Numbered from the stretch's first letter, positions 11,875-52,627 are shown. The stretch: 64,000 nucleotides of DNA from Candidatus Wirthbacteria bacterium (GCA_903889905.1 CAISZI010000040.1:64148-128147); one strand, 5' to 3'. Notes: generated by a model from the sequence alone, not told the origin. Translations and numbers: made by a program.

Positions 11875-11909
11875 GTCATTGCGAGCCATGCAGCATGGCT
11901 CGCAATGAC
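11875..11909. repeat. Perfect palindrome GTCATTGCGAGCCATGC-A-GCATGGCTCGCAATGAC (17-bp arms) between hisF and hisIE; same termini as the MITE/REP-like family
   Basis: Read directly. It sits 8 nt after the hisF stop and 12 nt before the hisIE start. Confidence 0.8.
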
Positions 11910-12616: not shown

Positions 12617-15418
12617 ATGGAAGATACGATTTTTGCCTCGGGAACGTTCTGGTTGATCAGTTTGCTGGTCGTAACCACGGTTTGGATCGTGCTGACGCTG
12701 CTGCGGCAGTCACGCATTCGCAAAATTAACACGCCCACCGTGGTGCTCGCGCTTTCAGTCCCCAAAAATAACGAAAAATCACCCCTCTCGGCTGAACAGT
12801 TGTTTGCTTCCCTGCATGGCTTGCATCGCAAGCATTTTCAGGCGCTGACGTATGGCCAGGTCAATATCTCACTGGAGATTCTGGCCCAAAAAGGCGCCAT
12901 CCGGTTTTATGTGACGGTACCCGAAAATCAGCAAAAATACATCTGCAACCAGATTTACGCCCAGTATCCGGATGTCAAAATCGAACCAGTGGATGACTAT
13001 GCCAAGGTCTATGATCTGAGTGTGATTGAACGCGAAGCGGCGGGGGCCAATATTGTGCTGAACCGGCCGTTCGTTTATCCGATCCGTACGTTTCAGAATT
13101 TTGACGTCGACCCGCTGGCATCCATGACCTCAGCCTTGTCTAACCTCGATGAAGGCAATGAAGTCTGGGTGCAAATGGTACTCCGGCCAGTCGGCAACAG
13201 CTGGCACGCGCGGGCGCACCACTTTGTCGGTCAACTGCGCAATGGCAAGCAGGGATTTTTGGGCAGTGTGTTGATCAATTTGATTCGTGAAATTGTCCAT
13301 ATAATTTTCATCGGCATTCCACGTGCGTTACTTTTTAATAAAGCGGGACTGGAATCCGGACCAGGCAGTGAAACTAAGATTAGTGACGCTGATTCGGCTG
13401 CTCTTAAATTGATTGAAGAAAAAACGACAAAGCTGGGGTTCGCGGTTAATTTGAGAATTCTCAGCATCGCGCCGACGCGAGAAGCGGCCACCACGCATGT
13501 GCAGCAGTTTATCTCGACCTTGCAGCAGTTCAATCAGCCCAATGCCAACGGGTTTCGCATGGGCCGACGTATCCTGAGCATGGGTAATTTCAAGGAAAAG
13601 TACAAAAACCGCCGTTCCAAAGGTTCCAGCATTATCATGAATACCGAAGAACTGGCGTCGTTTTATCACTTGCCCAACCAAATGGTGACGACACCGACGA
13701 TTGTCTGGTCGCGCGCGCGCAAAGGCGAACCACCGCCCAATTTGCCCATTACCACACCCGATGGCGACAACCGTAATTTGACGATTTTTGCCAAAACTGA
13801 CTTTCGGCACGAGGAACGCAAATTCGGTATCAAACAGCTTGACCGCCTGCGGCATACGTATGTGATTGGAAAAACCGGCATGGGTAAATCCACGATGCTG
13901 GCCAACATGGCAATTGACGACATCCGTTCTGGGCGTGGCGTGGCGGTGATTGACCCGCATGGCGACCTAATCGAAACCGTGCTGGATTACATTCCCAATA
14001 AACGCGTCAACGACGTAGTGATGTTTAACCCGGCAGACCGGCATTTCCCGGTGGCACTCAATATGCTCGAATCAGTCAACGACGAGTTCAAAGGCCTGGT
14101 GGCGTCGGGTTTGATCGCGGTTTTTTATAAAATGTATGAAAACAGCTGGGGCCCGCGCATGGAGCATATTTTGCGCAATTCCATCCTGGCGCTACTGGAT
14201 TCGCCCAATTCGACGCTGCTTGGGATTCCGCGCATGCTGGTGGACAAGGATTATCGCAATTCTGTGACGCGAAACATTACCAACCCGACTGTCGGCATGT
14301 TTTGGGAAAGTGAATTTCCCAAAATTGAAACCAGCCGTACGGCAGCCGAATCGCTAGGTGCAGTGCAGAACAAAATGGGTCAGTTCCTGAGCGCGCCGAT
14401 CGTGCGCAACATCGTGGGCCAGCCCAAAAGTACGATCGACATCCGCAGCATCATGGACGAAGGTAAAATTCTGCTGGTCAACCTGTCCAAAGGGTTGATC
14501 GGCGAAGATGTCAGCGCCCTGATGGGTGCCATGATGATCACCAAAGTTCAACTCGCCGCCATGTCGCGGTCGGATGTGCCTGAGGAGAAGCGTGTGCCGT
14601 TCTATATGTACGTTGACGAATTTCAAAACTTTGCCACCAGCAGCTTTGCCACGATTTTGTCCGAAGCACGCAAATACAAACTTGGTCTCACCATGGCCAA
14701 CCAGTACATCAGCCAAATGCCCGAAGATGTTCGCGCCGCCGTGTTTGGCAACGTGGGCACGTTGATCACCTTTTCCATTGGTGCCAGTGACGCGCCATTT
14801 ATTGCCAAGGAATTCATGCCGGTTTTTGATGACAACGACGTTATCCATTTGGACAAATACAACATTTATCTGCGCCTCACCGTTGATGGCCGCAATACTG
14901 AACCTTTTAGCGCCACGACGTTGCCGTTGCCAATCAACAAAAGCAACGCCCGGGACAAAATTTTGCGTGTCACGCGTGAACGCTACAGCAAACCGGTGGA
15001 CAAGGTTGAAGAAAAAATTGAACAAATGGTGGGTTTTCACCAGCTCAAACAAGGGGAATCGGAAAAAGTTGCGCCGGACACCAAAAAAATTGTTGCTGCC
15101 TCACTCAAACCGGCGGTTCCAGCTCCAGCTACCGCCAAGCCAGCGGCTGTCGCTGTGATCAGTCCTCGTGCCAGCAATCCTGCCATGCAAGGCGGAAATG
15201 CCAAAATTCCACAACCCGGCGCGACAGCAATTGCTATCCCAAATGCACCCGTAACTTCACCCCAATCGACTCCAAATCCAGCACCTCCCGCCAATCATCA
15301 GGACAATGCCCGCGCCTCCATTGCTCAAGCTGCCACCCAGGTAGCCGCCAATCAGCGTGAGCGTAACCGTTTGAATCGCAACAAACCACAACCTCCGCCA
15401 CTAGGGCCAAAAGGTTAG
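12617..15418 (+). CDS. Membrane-anchored FtsK/HerA-superfamily P-loop ATPase of the TraG/VirD4/VirB4-like (DUF87-type) group; probable DNA-translocation / type IV secretion-like ATPase; Pro/Ala-rich C-terminal tail
   Basis: There is an N-terminal TM helix (FWLISLLVVTTVWIVLTLL). Walker A is VIGKTGMGKST, there is a VIDPHGDL motif, and Walker B is FYMYVDEFQNFA. The last ~130 aa are low-complexity and rich in P/A/T. Confidence 0.65.
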   Translation: MEDTIFASGTFWLISLLVVTTVWIVLTLLRQSRIRKINTPTVVLALSVPKNNEKSPLSAEQLFASLHGLHRKHFQALTYGQVNISLEILAQKGAIRFYVTVPENQQKYICNQIYAQYPDVKIEPVDDYAKVYDLSVIEREAAGANIVLNRPFVYPIRTFQNFDVDPLASMTSALSNLDEGNEVWVQMVLRPVGNSWHARAHHFVGQLRNGKQGFLGSVLINLIREIVHIIFIGIPRALLFNKAGLESGPGSETKISDADSAALKLIEEKTTKLGFAVNLRILSIAPTREAATTHVQQFISTLQQFNQPNANGFRMGRRILSMGNFKEKYKNRRSKGSSIIMNTEELASFYHLPNQMVTTPTIVWSRARKGEPPPNLPITTPDGDNRNLTIFAKTDFRHEERKFGIKQLDRLRHTYVIGKTGMGKSTMLANMAIDDIRSGRGVAVIDPHGDLIETVLDYIPNKRVNDVVMFNPADRHFPVALNMLESVNDEFKGLVASGLIAVFYKMYENSWGPRMEHILRNSILALLDSPNSTLLGIPRMLVDKDYRNSVTRNITNPTVGMFWESEFPKIETSRTAAESLGAVQNKMGQFLSAPIVRNIVGQPKSTIDIRSIMDEGKILLVNLSKGLIGEDVSALMGAMMITKVQLAAMSRSDVPEEKRVPFYMYVDEFQNFATSSFATILSEARKYKLGLTMANQYISQMPEDVRAAVFGNVGTLITFSIGASDAPFIAKEFMPVFDDNDVIHLDKYNIYLRLTVDGRNTEPFSATTLPLPINKSNARDKILRVTRERYSKPVDKVEEKIEQMVGFHQLKQGESEKVAPDTKKIVAASLKPAVPAPATAKPAAVAVISPRASNPAMQGGNAKIPQPGATAIAIPNAPVTSPQSTPNPAPPANHQDNARASIAQAATQVAANQRERNRLNRNKPQPPPLGPKG

Positions 15419-15939
15419 TCATTCTGAGTGAAGCGAAGAATCCTCACTGAGCCTTGAAAAGGTGCTTGTGGTTTACCCATTGTAATACTCTTGCAAGTAG
15501 TAAGGATGCTTCCTCCTTCGCAAAGCTTCGGAGGACGGGTCGTTTCCCTCAGCATGACGGACGGCAGTCATTCTGAACGGAGTGAAGAATCCTCCCTGAG
15601 CCTTGAAAAGGTGCTTGTGGTTTACCCATAGTGATACTCTTGTAAGTAGTAAGGATGCTTCGTTTCTCTCAGCATGACAGTCAGCAGTCATTCTGAACGG
15701 AGTGAAGAATCCTTACTGAAACGTGAATTTGTACATGTGGTTAACCATGGTCAGCTCTTGTAAACAGTAAGGATACCTGCCTGGCAGTAAACAGTCTTCA
15801 ACTGCAACAGTTTCAGCATGAAGGACTGCAGTCATTCTGAGTGAAGCGAAGAATCCCTACTGTGTCGTGAGACCAAACATGTCGTATCCCCTAAGTGATC
15901 TTTGTTCAGTAGTAGGGATGCTTCGTACCTCAGCATGAC
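15418..15939. repeat. Tandem array of four imperfect-palindromic repeat units (about 141, 112, 137 and 109 bp) bounded by GTCATTCTGAG..CTCAGCATGAC termini; MITE/REP-like, not CRISPR
   Basis: Units start at 15418, 15567, 15687 and 15831, each with GTCATTCTGA(G/A)(T/C)GAAGCGAAGAATCC and ending in ...GGATGCTTCG..TCAGCATGAC. Units 1 and 2 have nearly identical interiors. Units 3 and 4 have different interiors but the matching inner stems co-vary (CCTTACTG/CAGTAAGG versus CCCTACTG/CAGTAGTAGGG). The first unit overlaps the TAG stop of the preceding CDS. Confidence 0.8.
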
Positions 15940-16006: not shown

Positions 16007-18781
16007 ATGTCTGCCACTGCCACCCATTTTATCGTTGTTGATCTGGAAACCACTGGATTGGAATCCCGCAAGGACGCCATCATCGAAGTTGGGCTGGTGC
16101 ATTGTGCTTATGCCATGGGTGAGATGAAAGTGCTGGAAACCTTTGAATCGCTCGTCAATCCCGGCCGCCATCTGGATTTCCTGATCGAAAAAATCACCGG
16201 CATCAGCAATGACATGCTCAAGGATGCGCGTTCTTGGAGCGACGTGAAACCCGAAATTGTCGCCTTCATTGGCGATTTACCACTGGTCGCACATAACGCG
16301 GATTTTGACATGGGATTTCTGGACGAAAATGGTGTCGACACCAAAACACACTCGATTTACGACACATACTGGCTTTCGACTTTGCTCGTTCCCGAAGCCA
16401 CCAGTTATGACCTGGGTTACCTATGTGAATTCTTTAAGGTCATGAACAAACAGCATCACCGCGCGCTCAATGACGCTGAAGTCACGGCACAGGTTTTTGG
16501 ACAGCTGCTGGATCGGTTTGACACGCTTGACAGCCAGTCTTTGCGTAACGTCAAAACGTTTATCGAGGACCGCAACTGGTCATATGCCACATTGCTTCCG
16601 GCCAAAGGCAAACGGGCTGAAAAGGATGATGCCACTGAAGCCGTTGTTTTACGGCAGTTTGCTAATGCCCAAGAATTGCACGACCATCCGCTTGCGATCG
16701 ACAACAAGGCGCTTAATTCAGTTTTCGCGGCCAAAGGCCACCTCAGCAAGCAGTTTGCGAGTTACGAAGAACGACCCCAGCAAACCGAAATGGCCGTCGA
16801 CATAGCAGGCGCCCTGACGACAGACAATATTCTGGCGATTGAAGCCGGCACAGGTGTCGGTAAATCGTTGGCTTACCTGGTCCCGGCTGCGCAGCTTGCG
16901 CTGCAGAACAACACACAGGTGGTCATCGCTACCTTTACGCTCAATCTGCAGGACCAGCTGGTGGACAAGGATATTCCGGTTGTGGTCAAGGCCATGGCCA
17001 AATCCTTTGCCGATCCGCCGCTTTCGTATGCCATTCTCAAAGGTCGCGACCATTATTTGTGTTCACGGCGACTCAAGTATTTCTTGAAGCGCCAGAATTT
17101 GAGCGACTATGAAGTCAGTTTTGCCGTCAAGCTACTGCTGGCCTTGCCAAGGCTGGTGGAAGGGGTGAAGCAGGAAATCAGCCTGTCGCGCGCCGAATAC
17201 CGGCTCTGGGGCCAGGTCAATGCCGCATCCGAATTTTGTTATGGCCAGCATTGTGACCACAGCGAATCGCCCTGCTTCTACGCCAAAGCCTGGAAAGCGG
17301 CCAAGAATTCTCACCTGATTGTCACCAACCATGCCTTTTTGTTCAGCAACCAGCAGTTGGCTGGTACCGATTTTCCGTTCGTCATCATTGATGAAGCACA
17401 CCACCTGGAGGATGTCATTTCCGACCAGAACACACAGGAATTTGACGAGTTCCAATTCAAGGAGTGGCTTTCGGGTTTTGGCCAGAAAAAGGGTGCGACC
17501 TATGCCGGGCTTTTGGGCGAACTGCAGGTTTATGGCGCAGCGACCAAAACGGACAATCTGGAGGATTTGAGCCACATTTCGCGTTTGGTGCAGCAGTTAA
17601 ATAAACAGCATAAGCATTTGGCGAAATTTTTGTTGGAAATTCTGCAACCCGCCGGCACCACAGCCGGCCTTTTTGCCGCCAAAAAAGCGCCTACCGAAGC
17701 GCCAGTGGGGGATTGGGACCGCAACAAACGCATCACCGGCGCCATCCGTGAATCCGGTGCCTGGTTGGAAATTGAAAAGCTGGTCGAGACGATTGCGCCA
17801 AGTCTGGTTGAACTGGTGGAATTGCTCACCGCACAGCTTCCCGATGATCAGTTTGCCAAAACCGACCTGGGACGAACGGTCAAAGAGCAGGTTCAAAGCC
17901 AGATTGACCAGGCCAGTTTTTTTCGCCAGGTGCTGCAGCAAGCCATATTGACGCCACGGGATAACGAATTTGTGACGTACCTTCGCCTTGATCCCAGGCT
18001 TTCCAGTGTGGCCGTGCGGGTTGTGCCGTTGGAAGCTGGTAAGATCTTCCACGATGATTTTTTGGTCAATAAACGGGCGGTAATTTTGACGTCAGCGACA
18101 CTGTTTGGCAGTTCCGACGAGTACCTTACGCGTCAGCTCAACCTGGTGGATCTGGTGACGTGCAAACGCATTGCTTCGCCATTTGATTACCCGCGTCAGG
18201 CGCAGCTGTATATCCCATCGGATTTGCCACACCACCATGATGGTGAGTTTGAATCCTACTTGGGGAAGCAGCTCAAGGAGCTTGTCAAACTTCACCACGG
18301 CCGGGCCATGGTTTTGTTCACATCCTATGCCCAGCTCAAACGCATGCACCAGAAATTATTGCGCGAACTGGATGAAATAGGCATCGAAATTCTGTCCCAG
18401 GGCATTGTCGGCAGCCGCGCCAAGATCGTACGTGCGTTCAAAAAGAATCCTAGCAGTGTCATCTTTGGCACCAACAGTTTTTGGGAAGGCGTGGATTTCC
18501 CTGGCGACGAACTAAAAACTTTGGTGATCGTCAAATTGCCGTTTGATGTTCCGTCGGATCCGATCTTTGCTGCACGCAGTGAGAAATTTGAGAATGCATT
18601 TACCGAATATTCCCTGCCGCGCGCCGTGTTGCGCTTCAAACAAGGCTTTGGCCGACTCATTCGCACCAAAACTGACACCGGCATTGTCGCTATTCTGGAC
18701 AAACGCATCGTCGGCAGCGGCTATGGCAAGGAATTCCTCAAGGCGCTGCCGGAGGGGATGAAGCGGATTGCGGAGCTTTAG
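16007..18781 (+). CDS. dinG: DinG-family ATP-dependent DNA helicase with an N-terminal DnaQ-like 3'-5' exonuclease domain
   Basis: The N-terminus FIVVDLETTGL...VAHNADFDMGFL...HRALNDA carries the DEDDh exonuclease motifs. It is followed by GTGVGKS (Walker A), DEAHH (the helicase DEAH box) and an Fe-S-like cysteine cluster region (CSRR...CYGQHCDHSESPC). Confidence 0.85.
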   Translation: MSATATHFIVVDLETTGLESRKDAIIEVGLVHCAYAMGEMKVLETFESLVNPGRHLDFLIEKITGISNDMLKDARSWSDVKPEIVAFIGDLPLVAHNADFDMGFLDENGVDTKTHSIYDTYWLSTLLVPEATSYDLGYLCEFFKVMNKQHHRALNDAEVTAQVFGQLLDRFDTLDSQSLRNVKTFIEDRNWSYATLLPAKGKRAEKDDATEAVVLRQFANAQELHDHPLAIDNKALNSVFAAKGHLSKQFASYEERPQQTEMAVDIAGALTTDNILAIEAGTGVGKSLAYLVPAAQLALQNNTQVVIATFTLNLQDQLVDKDIPVVVKAMAKSFADPPLSYAILKGRDHYLCSRRLKYFLKRQNLSDYEVSFAVKLLLALPRLVEGVKQEISLSRAEYRLWGQVNAASEFCYGQHCDHSESPCFYAKAWKAAKNSHLIVTNHAFLFSNQQLAGTDFPFVIIDEAHHLEDVISDQNTQEFDEFQFKEWLSGFGQKKGATYAGLLGELQVYGAATKTDNLEDLSHISRLVQQLNKQHKHLAKFLLEILQPAGTTAGLFAAKKAPTEAPVGDWDRNKRITGAIRESGAWLEIEKLVETIAPSLVELVELLTAQLPDDQFAKTDLGRTVKEQVQSQIDQASFFRQVLQQAILTPRDNEFVTYLRLDPRLSSVAVRVVPLEAGKIFHDDFLVNKRAVILTSATLFGSSDEYLTRQLNLVDLVTCKRIASPFDYPRQAQLYIPSDLPHHHDGEFESYLGKQLKELVKLHHGRAMVLFTSYAQLKRMHQKLLRELDEIGIEILSQGIVGSRAKIVRAFKKNPSSVIFGTNSFWEGVDFPGDELKTLVIVKLPFDVPSDPIFAARSEKFENAFTEYSLPRAVLRFKQGFGRLIRTKTDTGIVAILDKRIVGSGYGKEFLKALPEGMKRIAEL

Positions 18782-52455: not shown

Positions 52456-52520
52456 TGGTGCGCCCGGGAGGACTCGAATCCCGCTCCGCTTGGAAGCGGC
52501 CGGGATCTGGCGGGTTGTGG
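52456..52520 (-). other. Truncated tRNA-like fragment: 23-nt exact duplicate of the tRNA-Arg 3' end (T-arm plus acceptor plus CCA) with no 5' half
   Basis: TGGTGCGCCCGGGAGGACTCGAA at 52456-52478 is identical to 52551-52573. The sequence upstream (on the minus strand) cannot form an acceptor stem or D arm. Confidence 0.6.
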
Positions 52521-52550: not shown

Positions 52551-52627
52551 TGGTGCGCCCGGGAGGACTCGAACCTCCAACCGTCTGGTTCGTAGCCAGG
52601 TATTCTATCCAGTTGAACTACGAGCGC
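52551..52627 (-). tRNA. tRNA-Arg (anticodon ACG), CCA encoded
   Basis: Reverse-complement GCGCTCGTAGTTCAACTGGATAGAATACCTGGCTACGAACCAGACGGTTGGAGGTTCGAGTCCTCCCGGGCGCACCA folds into a cloverleaf: acceptor GCGCTCG/CGGGCGC, T-arm GGAGG-TTCGAGT-CCTCC, anticodon loop CTACGAA. Confidence 0.85.

Follow-up and report, generated by a model that had tools for sequence, protein, structure and literature searches.

Genomic Setting and Layout of the Array

The DNA analyzed here is a 64,000-nt stretch of a Candidatus Wirthbacteria bacterium genome (GCA_903889905.1, CAISZI010000040.1:64148-128147; hereafter the window, with positions counted from its first base). Between a gene for a coupling-protein ATPase and a gene for a DinG helicase, it carries an array of hairpin repeats (15418-15939), which is very likely a cluster of repetitive extragenic palindromes (REPs) of the kind that accompanies the small GIY-YIG nucleases of the Ssn family. 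The upstream gene (12617-15418, + strand), taken from the list of open reading frames (ORFs), encodes a TrwB/TraG-like coupling-protein ATPase of 933 aa with the Pfam domains TrwB_AAD_bind, T4SS-DNA_transf, and TraG-D_C. The downstream gene (16007-18781, + strand), recognized from the ORF list, Pfam, and homology, encodes a 924-aa DnaQ-like exonuclease fused to a DinG helicase, and starts 67 nt beyond the 3' end of the array.

The original prediction, made from the sequence alone, had described a four-unit array of hairpin repeats in this interval, and the sequence, its repeats, and their alignment all agree with that description. Four head-to-tail units on the + strand fill positions 15418-15939: U1 (15418-15558; 141 nt), U2 (15567-15678; 112 nt), U3 (15687-15822; 136 nt), and U4 (15831-15939; 109 nt). 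As had also been noticed, U1 begins within the stop codon of the ATPase gene (TAG, 15416-15418), the G of which is its first base. The units are separated by three mutually similar 8-nt spacers, GGACGGCA (15559-15566), AGTCAGCA (15679-15686), and GGACTGCA (15823-15830, read from the sequence). At the U2/U3 junction, the head-to-head flanks form an inverted repeat with 31-nt arms placed 8 nt apart; the U1/U2 junction, where the 3' REP of U1 meets the 5' REP of U2 head-to-head, has the same geometry.

The 26-nt motif at the head of the units has four matches in the window, compared with 0.00 expected from 100 shuffles, and none of these lies elsewhere in the 64 kb. In a MAFFT alignment, the four units have a mean column identity of 73%, and U3 still aligns with U1 and U2 (TGTGGTT.ACC, CTCTTGTAA); the cores of U3 and U4 had been called completely different from those of U1 and U2, which overstates their divergence. 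Tandem Repeats Finder reported nothing on the array because indels separate the units. Promoter and terminator scans of the array returned no terminator-like site and a single promoter-like match, not above shuffles, and HIP1, examined as a possible sign of cyanobacterial origin, is not enriched in the window.

Several known repeat types were discarded at this level. The earlier statement that the array is not a CRISPR is borne out: a CRISPR needs identical repeats of ∼24-48 nt and unique spacers of similar length, whereas this array repeats every 120-149 nt, has inverted repeats within its units and homologous unit interiors, and has spacers of 8 nt. Integron attC sites, hammerhead-like cores, and the ends of IS200/IS605 elements, judged by their generally known features, were set aside on anatomy (wrong tag, or conserved cores absent).

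Two features of the ATPase gene were also noted. The C-terminus of its product is a long stretch of low complexity with much Pro, Ala, Asn, and Gln (encoded at 15200-15415), which directly precedes the array, and its neighbors are housekeeping genes (hisIE upstream and dinG downstream), with no obvious conjugative element.

Anatomy of the REP Hairpins

Each unit is a tail-to-tail pair of slightly different short REP hairpins with ∼64 nt between them, a layout similar to that of bacterial interspersed mosaic elements (BIMEs). The array is thus composed of eight REP motifs in four tail-to-tail heterodimers, and where two units meet, their REPs face each other head-to-head across 8 nt. All REPs follow one plan: an unpaired GTC tag, a 5-bp stem opening with A-T and T-A, a tandem G.A, an apical stem of 1-2 bp, a GNA triloop, and an unpaired C-rich tail. 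On the + strand, the 5' REP of a unit reads (A)GTC, ATTCT, GA, G-T/A-C, GAA/GGA, G-C/G-T, GA, AGAAT, CC; the 3' REP, on the - strand, reads (C/T)GTC, ATGCT, GA, G.. GNA ..C, GA, AGCAT, CC. The differences between the two (T/G and A/C) leave each local stem paired, as ATTCT/AGAAT and ATGCT/AGCAT. The long hairpin formed by a whole unit has two mismatches because these bases pair within each REP and not between REPs.

In place of the single head consensus originally proposed, there are two versions, GAGTGAAGCGA (version a) in U1 and U4 and GAACGGAGTGA (version b) in U2 and U3. They differ by a compensated change of the apical pair (G-C vs. A-T), together with an adjacent T.G vs. C-G. Version a is represented by the 5' REP of U1 (15418-15443; GTC, ATTCT, GA, G-T-GAA-G-C, GA, AGAAT, CC) and by the identical 5' REP of U4 (15831-15856), and version b by the 5' REP of U2 (15567-15592; apical pairs A-T and C-G) and that of U3 (15687-15712), which are likewise identical to one another.

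The cores lie between the REPs. The U1 core (15444-15503), delimited by repeat-family detection and alignment, includes an imperfect inner stem and is 92% identical to the U2 core (15593-15652), while the U3 core (15713-15770) holds most of the inner stem of that unit and the U4 core (15857-15915) is the most diverged of the four. Combined with the head versions, the core types form a mosaic along the array: a/A, b/A, b/A', and a/B.

The 3' REPs all lie on the - strand. Those of U2 (15653-15678; TGTC, ATGCT / GAGAGAAACGA / AGCAT, CC) and U4 (15916-15939; CGTC, ATGCT / GAGGTACGA / AGCAT with a GTA triloop, CC) are undamaged. The 3' REP of U1 (15504-15558) has the CGTC tag, the ATGCT...AGCAT stem, and the CC tail, and its loop contains a 29-nt insertion (15513-15541; length difference from the U2 3' REP, read from the sequence) that is itself a small hairpin. 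The 3' REP of U3 (15771-15822), read from the sequence and not recovered by the REP scanner, has decayed: the GTC tag has become TTC, the 3' half of the basal stem is lost, and a long unrelated insert occupies the loop. The units were said to end in an imperfect reverse complement of their head, and this holds generally, except for U3, whose 3' end is degenerate (...TTTCAGCATGAA), with its inner half replaced.

In each of the seven intact REPs, the stem is preceded by GTC and followed by CC, and the tails read CCT or CCC (across the wider family described below: CTC, CTA, CTG, CCC, and similar). The base before GTC is C in the 3' REPs of U1 and U4 (CGTC) and T in that of U2 (TGTC), and the decayed U3 copy has CTTC; the four 5' REPs all have AGTC (A at 15417, 15566, 15686, and 15830).

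Regarding nested insertions, an additional GC-rich hairpin between the two GA dinucleotides is frequent in REP loops of the family (e.g., loci L139, L143, L164, and L177; example GAGCCGCCACGGGCGGCGA). The insert in the U1 3' REP is one such case, and the REP apex appears to tolerate or attract nested insertions.

Distribution of the Motif and Its Association With GIY-YIG Genes

A motif scan (query GTCATTCTGARNGNAGNGAAGAATC; one genome per species) recovered the 25-nt head motif in at least 120 genome stretches. The matches listed include Nitrospirota, Chloroflexota, Acidobacteriota, Bacteroidota, Saccharibacteria, Gracilibacteria, Ignavibacteria, the candidate phyla radiation (CPR), Planctomycetota, Verrucomicrobiota, Clostridia, Proteobacteria, and others. 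Pairs of + and - motifs 40-130 nt apart occur at many of these motif-fetched loci; perfect long hairpins were found in one Bacteroidales and one Armatimonadetes metagenome-assembled genome (MAG), and tandem arrays resembling that of the window in Pedobacter (L065, L111). The exact version-a 25-mer, from the U1 5' REP, is also present in two Dehalococcoidia/Chloroflexota loci (L102, L106), and the exact version-b 25-mer, from the U2 5' REP, in Pedobacter (L111, four copies), in Chloroflexota (L015, L022, L094), and in a gammaproteobacterial MAG (L085). In the literature, the motif as a bare sequence matched nothing but unrelated primers and bla sequences.

The accompanying gene was identified by clustering the 3,822 ORFs of 120 motif loci all-against-all. 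A small GIY-YIG protein occurs in four of these loci, and in three (L002, L017, L062) its gene lies inside a tail-to-tail REP pair; in L062, the 5' REP has the stem ATTCT and the 3' REP the stem ATGCT, the very combination of the window. Pfam finds no domain other than GIY-YIG in the REP-bracketed small proteins. Of 150 short ORFs located within 250 nt of REPs in motif-fetched loci, GIY-YIG alone among the Pfam families accounts for more than two. The L062 protein is 46% identical (E 4e-28) to a 94-aa SsnA-like protein of Neisseria gonorrhoeae, itself flanked by canonical NTS repeats (L201, NZ_CP119140.1 1881678-1883150), and the REP-bracketed GIY-YIG set is therefore placed in the Ssn family. 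Among structures in the PDB, only distant UPF0213 relatives and no Ssn protein were found, and no literature pairing GIY-YIG with repetitive extragenic palindromic repeats by those words was retrieved. The gonococcal record, a 2.17-Mb chromosome, is filed as a 'plasmid' in a plasmid collection and is almost unannotated.

An independent sample gave the same picture. We fetched 80 metagenomic loci by homology to the GIY-YIG proteins only, with no use of the DNA motif, and searched them for REPs; a generic scanner for GTC plus a 5-bp stem was too unspecific and was tightened. A REP with its tag outward lies within 150 nt upstream of the GIY-YIG gene in 44 of the 80 loci, and such a REP lies within 200 nt downstream in 52; 33 have REPs on both sides with tags outward, and 63 on at least one side. 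REP density peaks upstream at 8.2 per kb (51-100 nt from the gene) and downstream at 4.7-5.9 per kb (within 100 nt), and is down to ∼0.3 per kb beyond 400 nt. The GIY-YIG ORF commonly reads into the 3' REP and stops there (...SLRSE*).

Repeat-encoded ORF ends of this kind, ...D(S/P)SLRS(E/G) followed by a TGA stop, were seen in many loci (L136, L140, L163, L148, L180, L127, L179, and others; L017:6272-6600). A 'hypothetical protein' ending in SLRSE, or in VILSEAK when read from the other strand, marks a REP.

These neighbors bear on two explanations that invoke a transposase. In the first, the units would be REPINs mobilized by a REP-associated tyrosine transposase (RAYT; Y1, IS200-like), as in Pseudomonas and in the BIMEs of Escherichia coli. 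Two inverted REPs per hairpin unit, clustered and alternating, are indeed the REPIN/BIME layout (PMC3116915). The tag, however, is GTC and not GTAG, no tyrosine transposase flanked by CGTC repeats was found by Di Nocera et al. (PMC3733652), and no recurrent neighbor of the transposase kind emerged from the 3,822 clustered ORFs. Only GIY-YIG recurs among the 150 short ORFs, and Y1_Tnp is not among the listed families, where a single-copy RAYT elsewhere in the genome would escape. We consider this explanation very unlikely.

In the second, the units would be classical MITEs (miniature transposable elements with inverted repeats) derived from an insertion sequence with a DDE transposase, their conserved ends being terminal inverted repeats. 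A nest of related MITEs was among the identities first suggested, and a nest of related miniature hairpin elements it is; the unit size (109-141 bp), the imperfect inverted repeats at the ends, and the copies at several positions and in many genomes would all suit a MITE. The DDE-type origin is what fails: there is no target-site duplication or direct repeat around the units or the array, no transposase recurs nearby, and the full-length relatives carry a GIY-YIG gene instead. Moreover, the supposed terminal repeats are themselves covarying hairpins with an unpaired tag, and the two ends differ systematically. We likewise consider a DDE-derived MITE very unlikely.

The organism is deep-branching: the nearest relative of the DinG-like protein is 43% identical, followed by Chloroflexota proteins at ∼35%. 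The gene for this nearest relative has a different neighborhood, with a single REP-like hairpin downstream, and so provides no 'empty site' for comparison. In the groundwater metagenomes concerned (L202:8957-8990 and L203:3192-3225), that hairpin is GTC-tagged, with the stem ACCCT and the loop GAACGAAAGCACCTGCAGTGA, and lies just downstream of the dinG relative, between convergent genes. An IS110-family transposase is encoded upstream of dinG there.

A similar loop was noticed in plant mitochondria, in the 36-nt 'Bpu' element of Cycas and Ginkgo (AAGGTTATCCCTTTCCTGAGCGTAGCGAAGGGAAGG; PMC8297867). It shares the 11-nt loop GAGCGTAGCGA (tandem GA, G-C, GTA triloop) with the REP loop at 15426-15436, and closes it with an 8-bp stem (CCTTTCCT/AGGGAAGG). 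The two may be truly related, or both may have converged on a DNA mini-hairpin that is stable. Organelles commonly have GIY-YIG endonucleases.

Covariation and Folding

Covariation was measured in the protein-fetched loci with the anchor GTC-N5-GA-N7-GA-N5, which does not require pairing. Five of five basal pairs are Watson-Crick in 95 of the 154 anchor matches, and the distribution is bimodal. Counts were made on 74 distinct REPs of this type (hereafter GA-type, for the tandem G.A) from the same loci. Basal pair 2 is T-A in 57 and C-G in 16; basal pair 3 is T-A in 38, C-G in 27, and G-C in 5. The apical pair (G-C in 56, A-T in 18) is always Watson-Crick, compared with 34% of background anchors paired at that position, and G.T pairs make up ∼1% of stem cells. 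At the unpaired positions, there is T or C before GTC in 73 REPs, C directly after the stem in 73, and a GNA triloop in 56. Across the family, 137 neighboring REP pairs are tail-to-tail, 54 head-to-head, and 46 in the same orientation, and 44 of 73 dimers are heterodimers.

The inner stem gives a different result. It is a perfect 10 bp in U3 (15709-15718 / 15765-15774), with ends that overlap the REP tails, and lies partly inside the core in U4 (15853-15862 / 15907-15919). The MAFFT alignment splits the 3' arm of U2 and U4 around the U1 insertion, and pair counts were therefore made by hand from the sequence. Inner-stem covariation had been reported between these units, and one compensated pair was found (T-A vs. 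C-G; ATCCTTACTG/CAGTAAGGAT in U3, ATCCCTACTG/..GTAGGGAT in U4), but U1 and U2 have one and two mismatches, respectively. In the family, complementarity continues inward of the stem at 0.96, 0.90, and 0.81, then ∼0.5, and reaches background by position 11, so that the 10-bp inner stem of the window is mostly REP tail plus a few extra pairs. Covariation is thus strong in the REP stems of the family (74 REPs, 80 loci) and amounts to one pair in the inner stem of the window. The claim that structure is under selection stands for the REP hairpins; the structure selected is mainly the ∼24-nt REP hairpin at each unit end, not the long hairpin or its inner stem.

Folding of each unit, also proposed originally, returned long hairpins (RNA minimum free energy -34 to -52 kcal/mol) with z-scores of -2.8 to -4.6 for U1, U2, and U4 and -1.7 for U3. 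The + strand, the sense strand of both flanking genes, folds better as RNA than the - strand by 0.4-6.7 kcal/mol in all four units. These energies could suggest a structured non-coding RNA or a 3'-UTR/5'-UTR (untranslated region) element that stabilizes the ATPase mRNA, attenuates read-through into dinG, or yields small RNAs; in general, moreover, REPs show enrichment downstream of ORFs and are believed to be transcribed (PMC3733652). The conserved module (GTC tag, tandem G.A, GNA loop), however, is specific to one strand, and each unit has one module on each strand; a single transcript would therefore carry only half of them in the conserved form. Tail-to-tail pairs prevail over same-orientation pairs in the family, G.U pairs are almost absent from the stems, and SsnA, the characterized partner protein, binds ssDNA and not RNA (PMC11893778). 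Because the four units are related by descent, their strand asymmetry amounts to about one observation. Rfam 15 gave no match in the array at the gathering score; at E ≤ 1 the only match was mir-644 (19 bits, against a gathering score of 96), taken as noise. In view of the opposite-strand modules, the scarcity of G.U pairs, and the lack of an Rfam or terminator signal in the array, an RNA function is unlikely, and the evidence argues against the structured RNA array offered as one option in the original prediction. Should the array influence the genes on either side, perhaps by forming a stable hairpin in a 3'-UTR, this would be a secondary effect.

A Second REP Family in the Window

A second, related family of GTC-tagged REPs, with the stem ATTGC/GCAAT and a longer loop that has its own hairpin, occupies three sites in the window. 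The first is a tail-to-tail dimer (1717-1802, + strand), in which the tag region of the right-hand REP is mutated (GTCGTTGC). The second is a single REP (2853-2887, - strand) with a CGTC tag and the loop hairpin GCCTTG/CAAGGC (DNA fold -8.3 kcal/mol, z -2.7). The third, a perfect 35-nt palindrome (GTCATTGCGAGCCATGC, A, GCATGGCTCGCAATGAC; 11875-11909, no strand assigned; DNA fold -19.9 kcal/mol, z -9.2), runs across the first ATG (11895) of the hisIE ORF and lies just before or across the start of that gene. Together with the REPs of the array, these sites indicate that the genome carries at least two REP families of this superfamily. Elsewhere in the window, a 38-nt segment (52456-52493) shares 82% identity with the 3' portion (52551-52588) of a tRNA-Arg(ACG) gene (52551-52627, - strand) at a distance of 95 nt. 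ARAGORN and Rfam call no tRNA at this segment, which may be a piece of a tRNA gene or a scar left by integration.

Probable Origin and Possible Mobility of the Array

Taken together, the array is very probably a cluster of eight REP hairpins, arranged as four tail-to-tail heterodimers, that belongs to the superfamily of GTC-tagged REPs and Ssn-related motifs (SRMs). The same REPs bracket a ∼95-aa GIY-YIG gene in related genomes, and the window units are therefore read as ORF-less (non-autonomous, REPIN/MITE-like) derivatives of REP-ssn-REP mini-elements. This assignment draws on the observed anatomy, the family-wide covariation, the positional tie to ssn genes, and the homology of one such protein to the Neisseria SsnA orthologue. 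The array is accordingly a known kind of element in a variant form, and neither a new RNA class nor a new defense array.

A mechanism can be proposed by analogy with the Neisseria enzyme. SsnA is a 94-aa single-domain GIY-YIG nuclease that binds its repeat, NTS/dRS3, as ssDNA only; it nicks a few nt 5' of the motif, with GTC important for cutting and the C after the palindrome for binding, and it limits transformation when the incoming DNA bears NTS (Chenal et al., Nat Commun, 2025; PMC11893778). We infer that an Ssn protein of the GA-type subfamily cuts the hairpin type of the window, that this genome encodes one, and that the units spread in an Ssn-dependent manner. Recognition of a REP would require the strand that carries it to be single-stranded; binding by the nuclease would involve the hairpin plus the 3' C, and the nick would fall a few nt 5' of the GTC tag. 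For the array, the candidate nick sites would be the 8-nt head-to-head spacers and the two outer edges. The array probably grew by insertion next to existing REPs, by unequal recombination, or by both. The recombination or regulatory site suggested originally comes close to the role of the known Neisseria system.

Several observations weigh against this reading. No ssn homologue lies within the 64-kb window. The published SRM search pattern (HGTCWYN(0-2)YYVSBRHN(0-5)WNVSBRGN(0-2)RNCYNB), which gave seven matches in the 1.5-kb N. gonorrhoeae locus used as a control, has no match in the window's seven intact REPs, in the 74 GA-type REPs, or in the 80 GIY-YIG loci; because of this failure we treat the GA-type as a variant. 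In the gonococcal locus, the CGTC tags of the NTS repeats face the ssnA-like gene, whereas GA-type tags face outward. The Ssn biochemistry invoked above is that of the Neisseria enzyme and would apply to the GA-type subfamily by analogy. All four 5' REPs have A before GTC, yet A occurs there in none of the 74 family members (T 63, C 10, G 1). Nearest-neighbor DNA folding of the isolated REPs gives -0.9 to -2.4 kcal/mol, no better than shuffles, in a model that gives no credit to sheared G.A pairs or GNA triloops. Both motifs are stable in DNA, as in the GCGAAGC mini-hairpin, and the case for the local hairpin thus rests on covariation plus this stability, not on predicted energy. Finally, with one REP decayed and a second interrupted by an insertion, part of the array may be inert.

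This last point leads to the possibility that the array is an inert relic, i.e., decaying copies of selfish REP dimers that unequal recombination has multiplied locally and that at present have neither a partner nuclease nor a function in the genome. Since the window holds no ssn gene, the array may be partly or wholly of this nature. It is also the single array of its type in 64 kb, the U3 3' REP lacks its tag and half of its stem, the U1 3' REP has its 29-nt insertion, and the spacers are mutually homologous, as expected if unit and spacer were duplicated together. Set against this, six or seven of the eight REPs keep the tag, both stems, the triloop, and the tail; the head versions differ by compensated rather than random changes; and the mosaic of heads and cores is unlike simple serial tandem duplication. 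We regard a wholly inert array as possible but doubtful; it would concern present activity only and is compatible with assignment to the REP/SRM superfamily.

Beyond that assignment, we tentatively suggest, as a possibility that seems to us less likely than its opposite, that REP-ssn-REP units of the GA-type, which measure ∼370-450 bp, have outward tags, and have the stop codon within the 3' REP, are active autonomous mobile elements moved by their own GIY-YIG ssDNA nuclease, with the ORF-less dimers, including the four of the window, as non-autonomous passengers. The ends of an element would be set by nicks 5' of the outward tags, insertion next to REPs already present would enlarge arrays, and the near-identical 25-nt REPs of distant phyla would reflect horizontal spread. 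Were this the case, it would be a GIY-YIG counterpart of the RAYT/REPIN system and would supply the 'missing transposase' of the CGTC-type REPs. The geometry of outward tags and the ORF-less dimers offer a handle on mobility, and hence on what spreads those REPs.

Independently of mobility, these results have practical implications. An entire hairpin type, with a 5-bp stem, tandem G.A, and a GNA triloop, escapes the published SRM definition. Chloroflexota, Acidobacteriota, Bacteroidota, CPR, and other groups commonly carry it, and its tie to the Ssn-family genes that it brackets is as tight as that of the canonical motif. Work is under way to develop Ssn nucleases as site-specific ssDNA cutters. 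The GA-type hairpin, with its natural compensatory variants, provides ready candidate enzyme/site pairs. For annotation, such arrays should be masked as REP/SRM clusters and not called as small ORFs (translations ...SLRSE, VILSEAKN-like).

Comparison With Known Systems

The layout of the array resembles that of the BIMEs of E. coli and the REPINs of Pseudomonas, which likewise have alternating REPs in two slight versions, short and long linkers, and intergenic tandem repeats. Their doublets can fold as one long hairpin, and they are regarded as non-autonomous partners of a single-copy enzyme acting on ssDNA hairpins. They differ in the tag (GTAG) and in the enzyme, which is of the HUH/Y1 (RAYT) type and not GIY-YIG; there is no sequence similarity, and no RAYT association was detected here.

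A closer match is found in the CGTC-tagged REPs of Di Nocera, De Gregorio and Rocco (BMC Genomics, 2013; PMC3733652), which comprise the families CGTC-1 to CGTC-4. These have a CGTC or TGTC (or CCTC) tag, an 8-9-bp stem starting with A and T, a 4-5-nt loop, and a CCA tail, and occur mostly as dimers near the 3' ends of ORFs without a dedicated transposase (PMC3733652). Similarly, three of the four window 3' REPs have a CGTC or TGTC tag, the stems start with A and T, and the short unpaired tail is C-rich; dimers, often heterodimers, are frequent, lie just downstream of ORFs, and sometimes supply the stop codon, again with no dedicated transposase. The differences are nonetheless several. The published dimers are mostly head-to-head and rarely clustered, whereas tail-to-tail pairs predominate here; the stem here is 5 Watson-Crick bp broken by G.A and closed by a triloop, although counting the G.A gives 8-9 stacked positions; and the four window 5' REPs have AGTC. 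The reported hosts of the CGTC REPs belong to five phyla, mainly Alphaproteobacteria, while the GA-type is common in Chloroflexota, Acidobacteriota, Bacteroidota, and CPR.

The closest counterpart is the SRM/NTS system, NTS/dRS3 being the Neisseria member of the CGTC-tagged REP class. The published motif has an 8-bp GC-rich stem and a 4-nt loop, compared with 5 bp, tandem G.A, 1-2 bp, and a GNA triloop here, and the window units are tail-to-tail heterodimers around a ∼64-nt core. The NTS-ssnA-NTS layout was noted as IS-like, with mobility not demonstrated in that study, and an Ssn homologue is encoded in 81% of genomes with more than 200 SRMs (PMC11893778). In the published survey, 71% of ssnA homologues have an SRM nearby and 42% have one on both sides (PMC11893778); the corresponding values for the 80 loci of this study, 79% and 41%, agree with these. 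In both systems, a hairpin repeat with an unpaired (N)GTC on its 5' side, a stem beginning with AT, and a C right after the stem occurs in many copies, clustered in intergenic DNA. It also brackets a ∼94-aa GIY-YIG gene, a likeness that applies here at the level of the family, the window itself having no ssn gene, and the partner proteins are homologous to Neisseria SsnA, a member of the cd10448 clade (46% identity for the L062 protein; by pairwise identity and Pfam).

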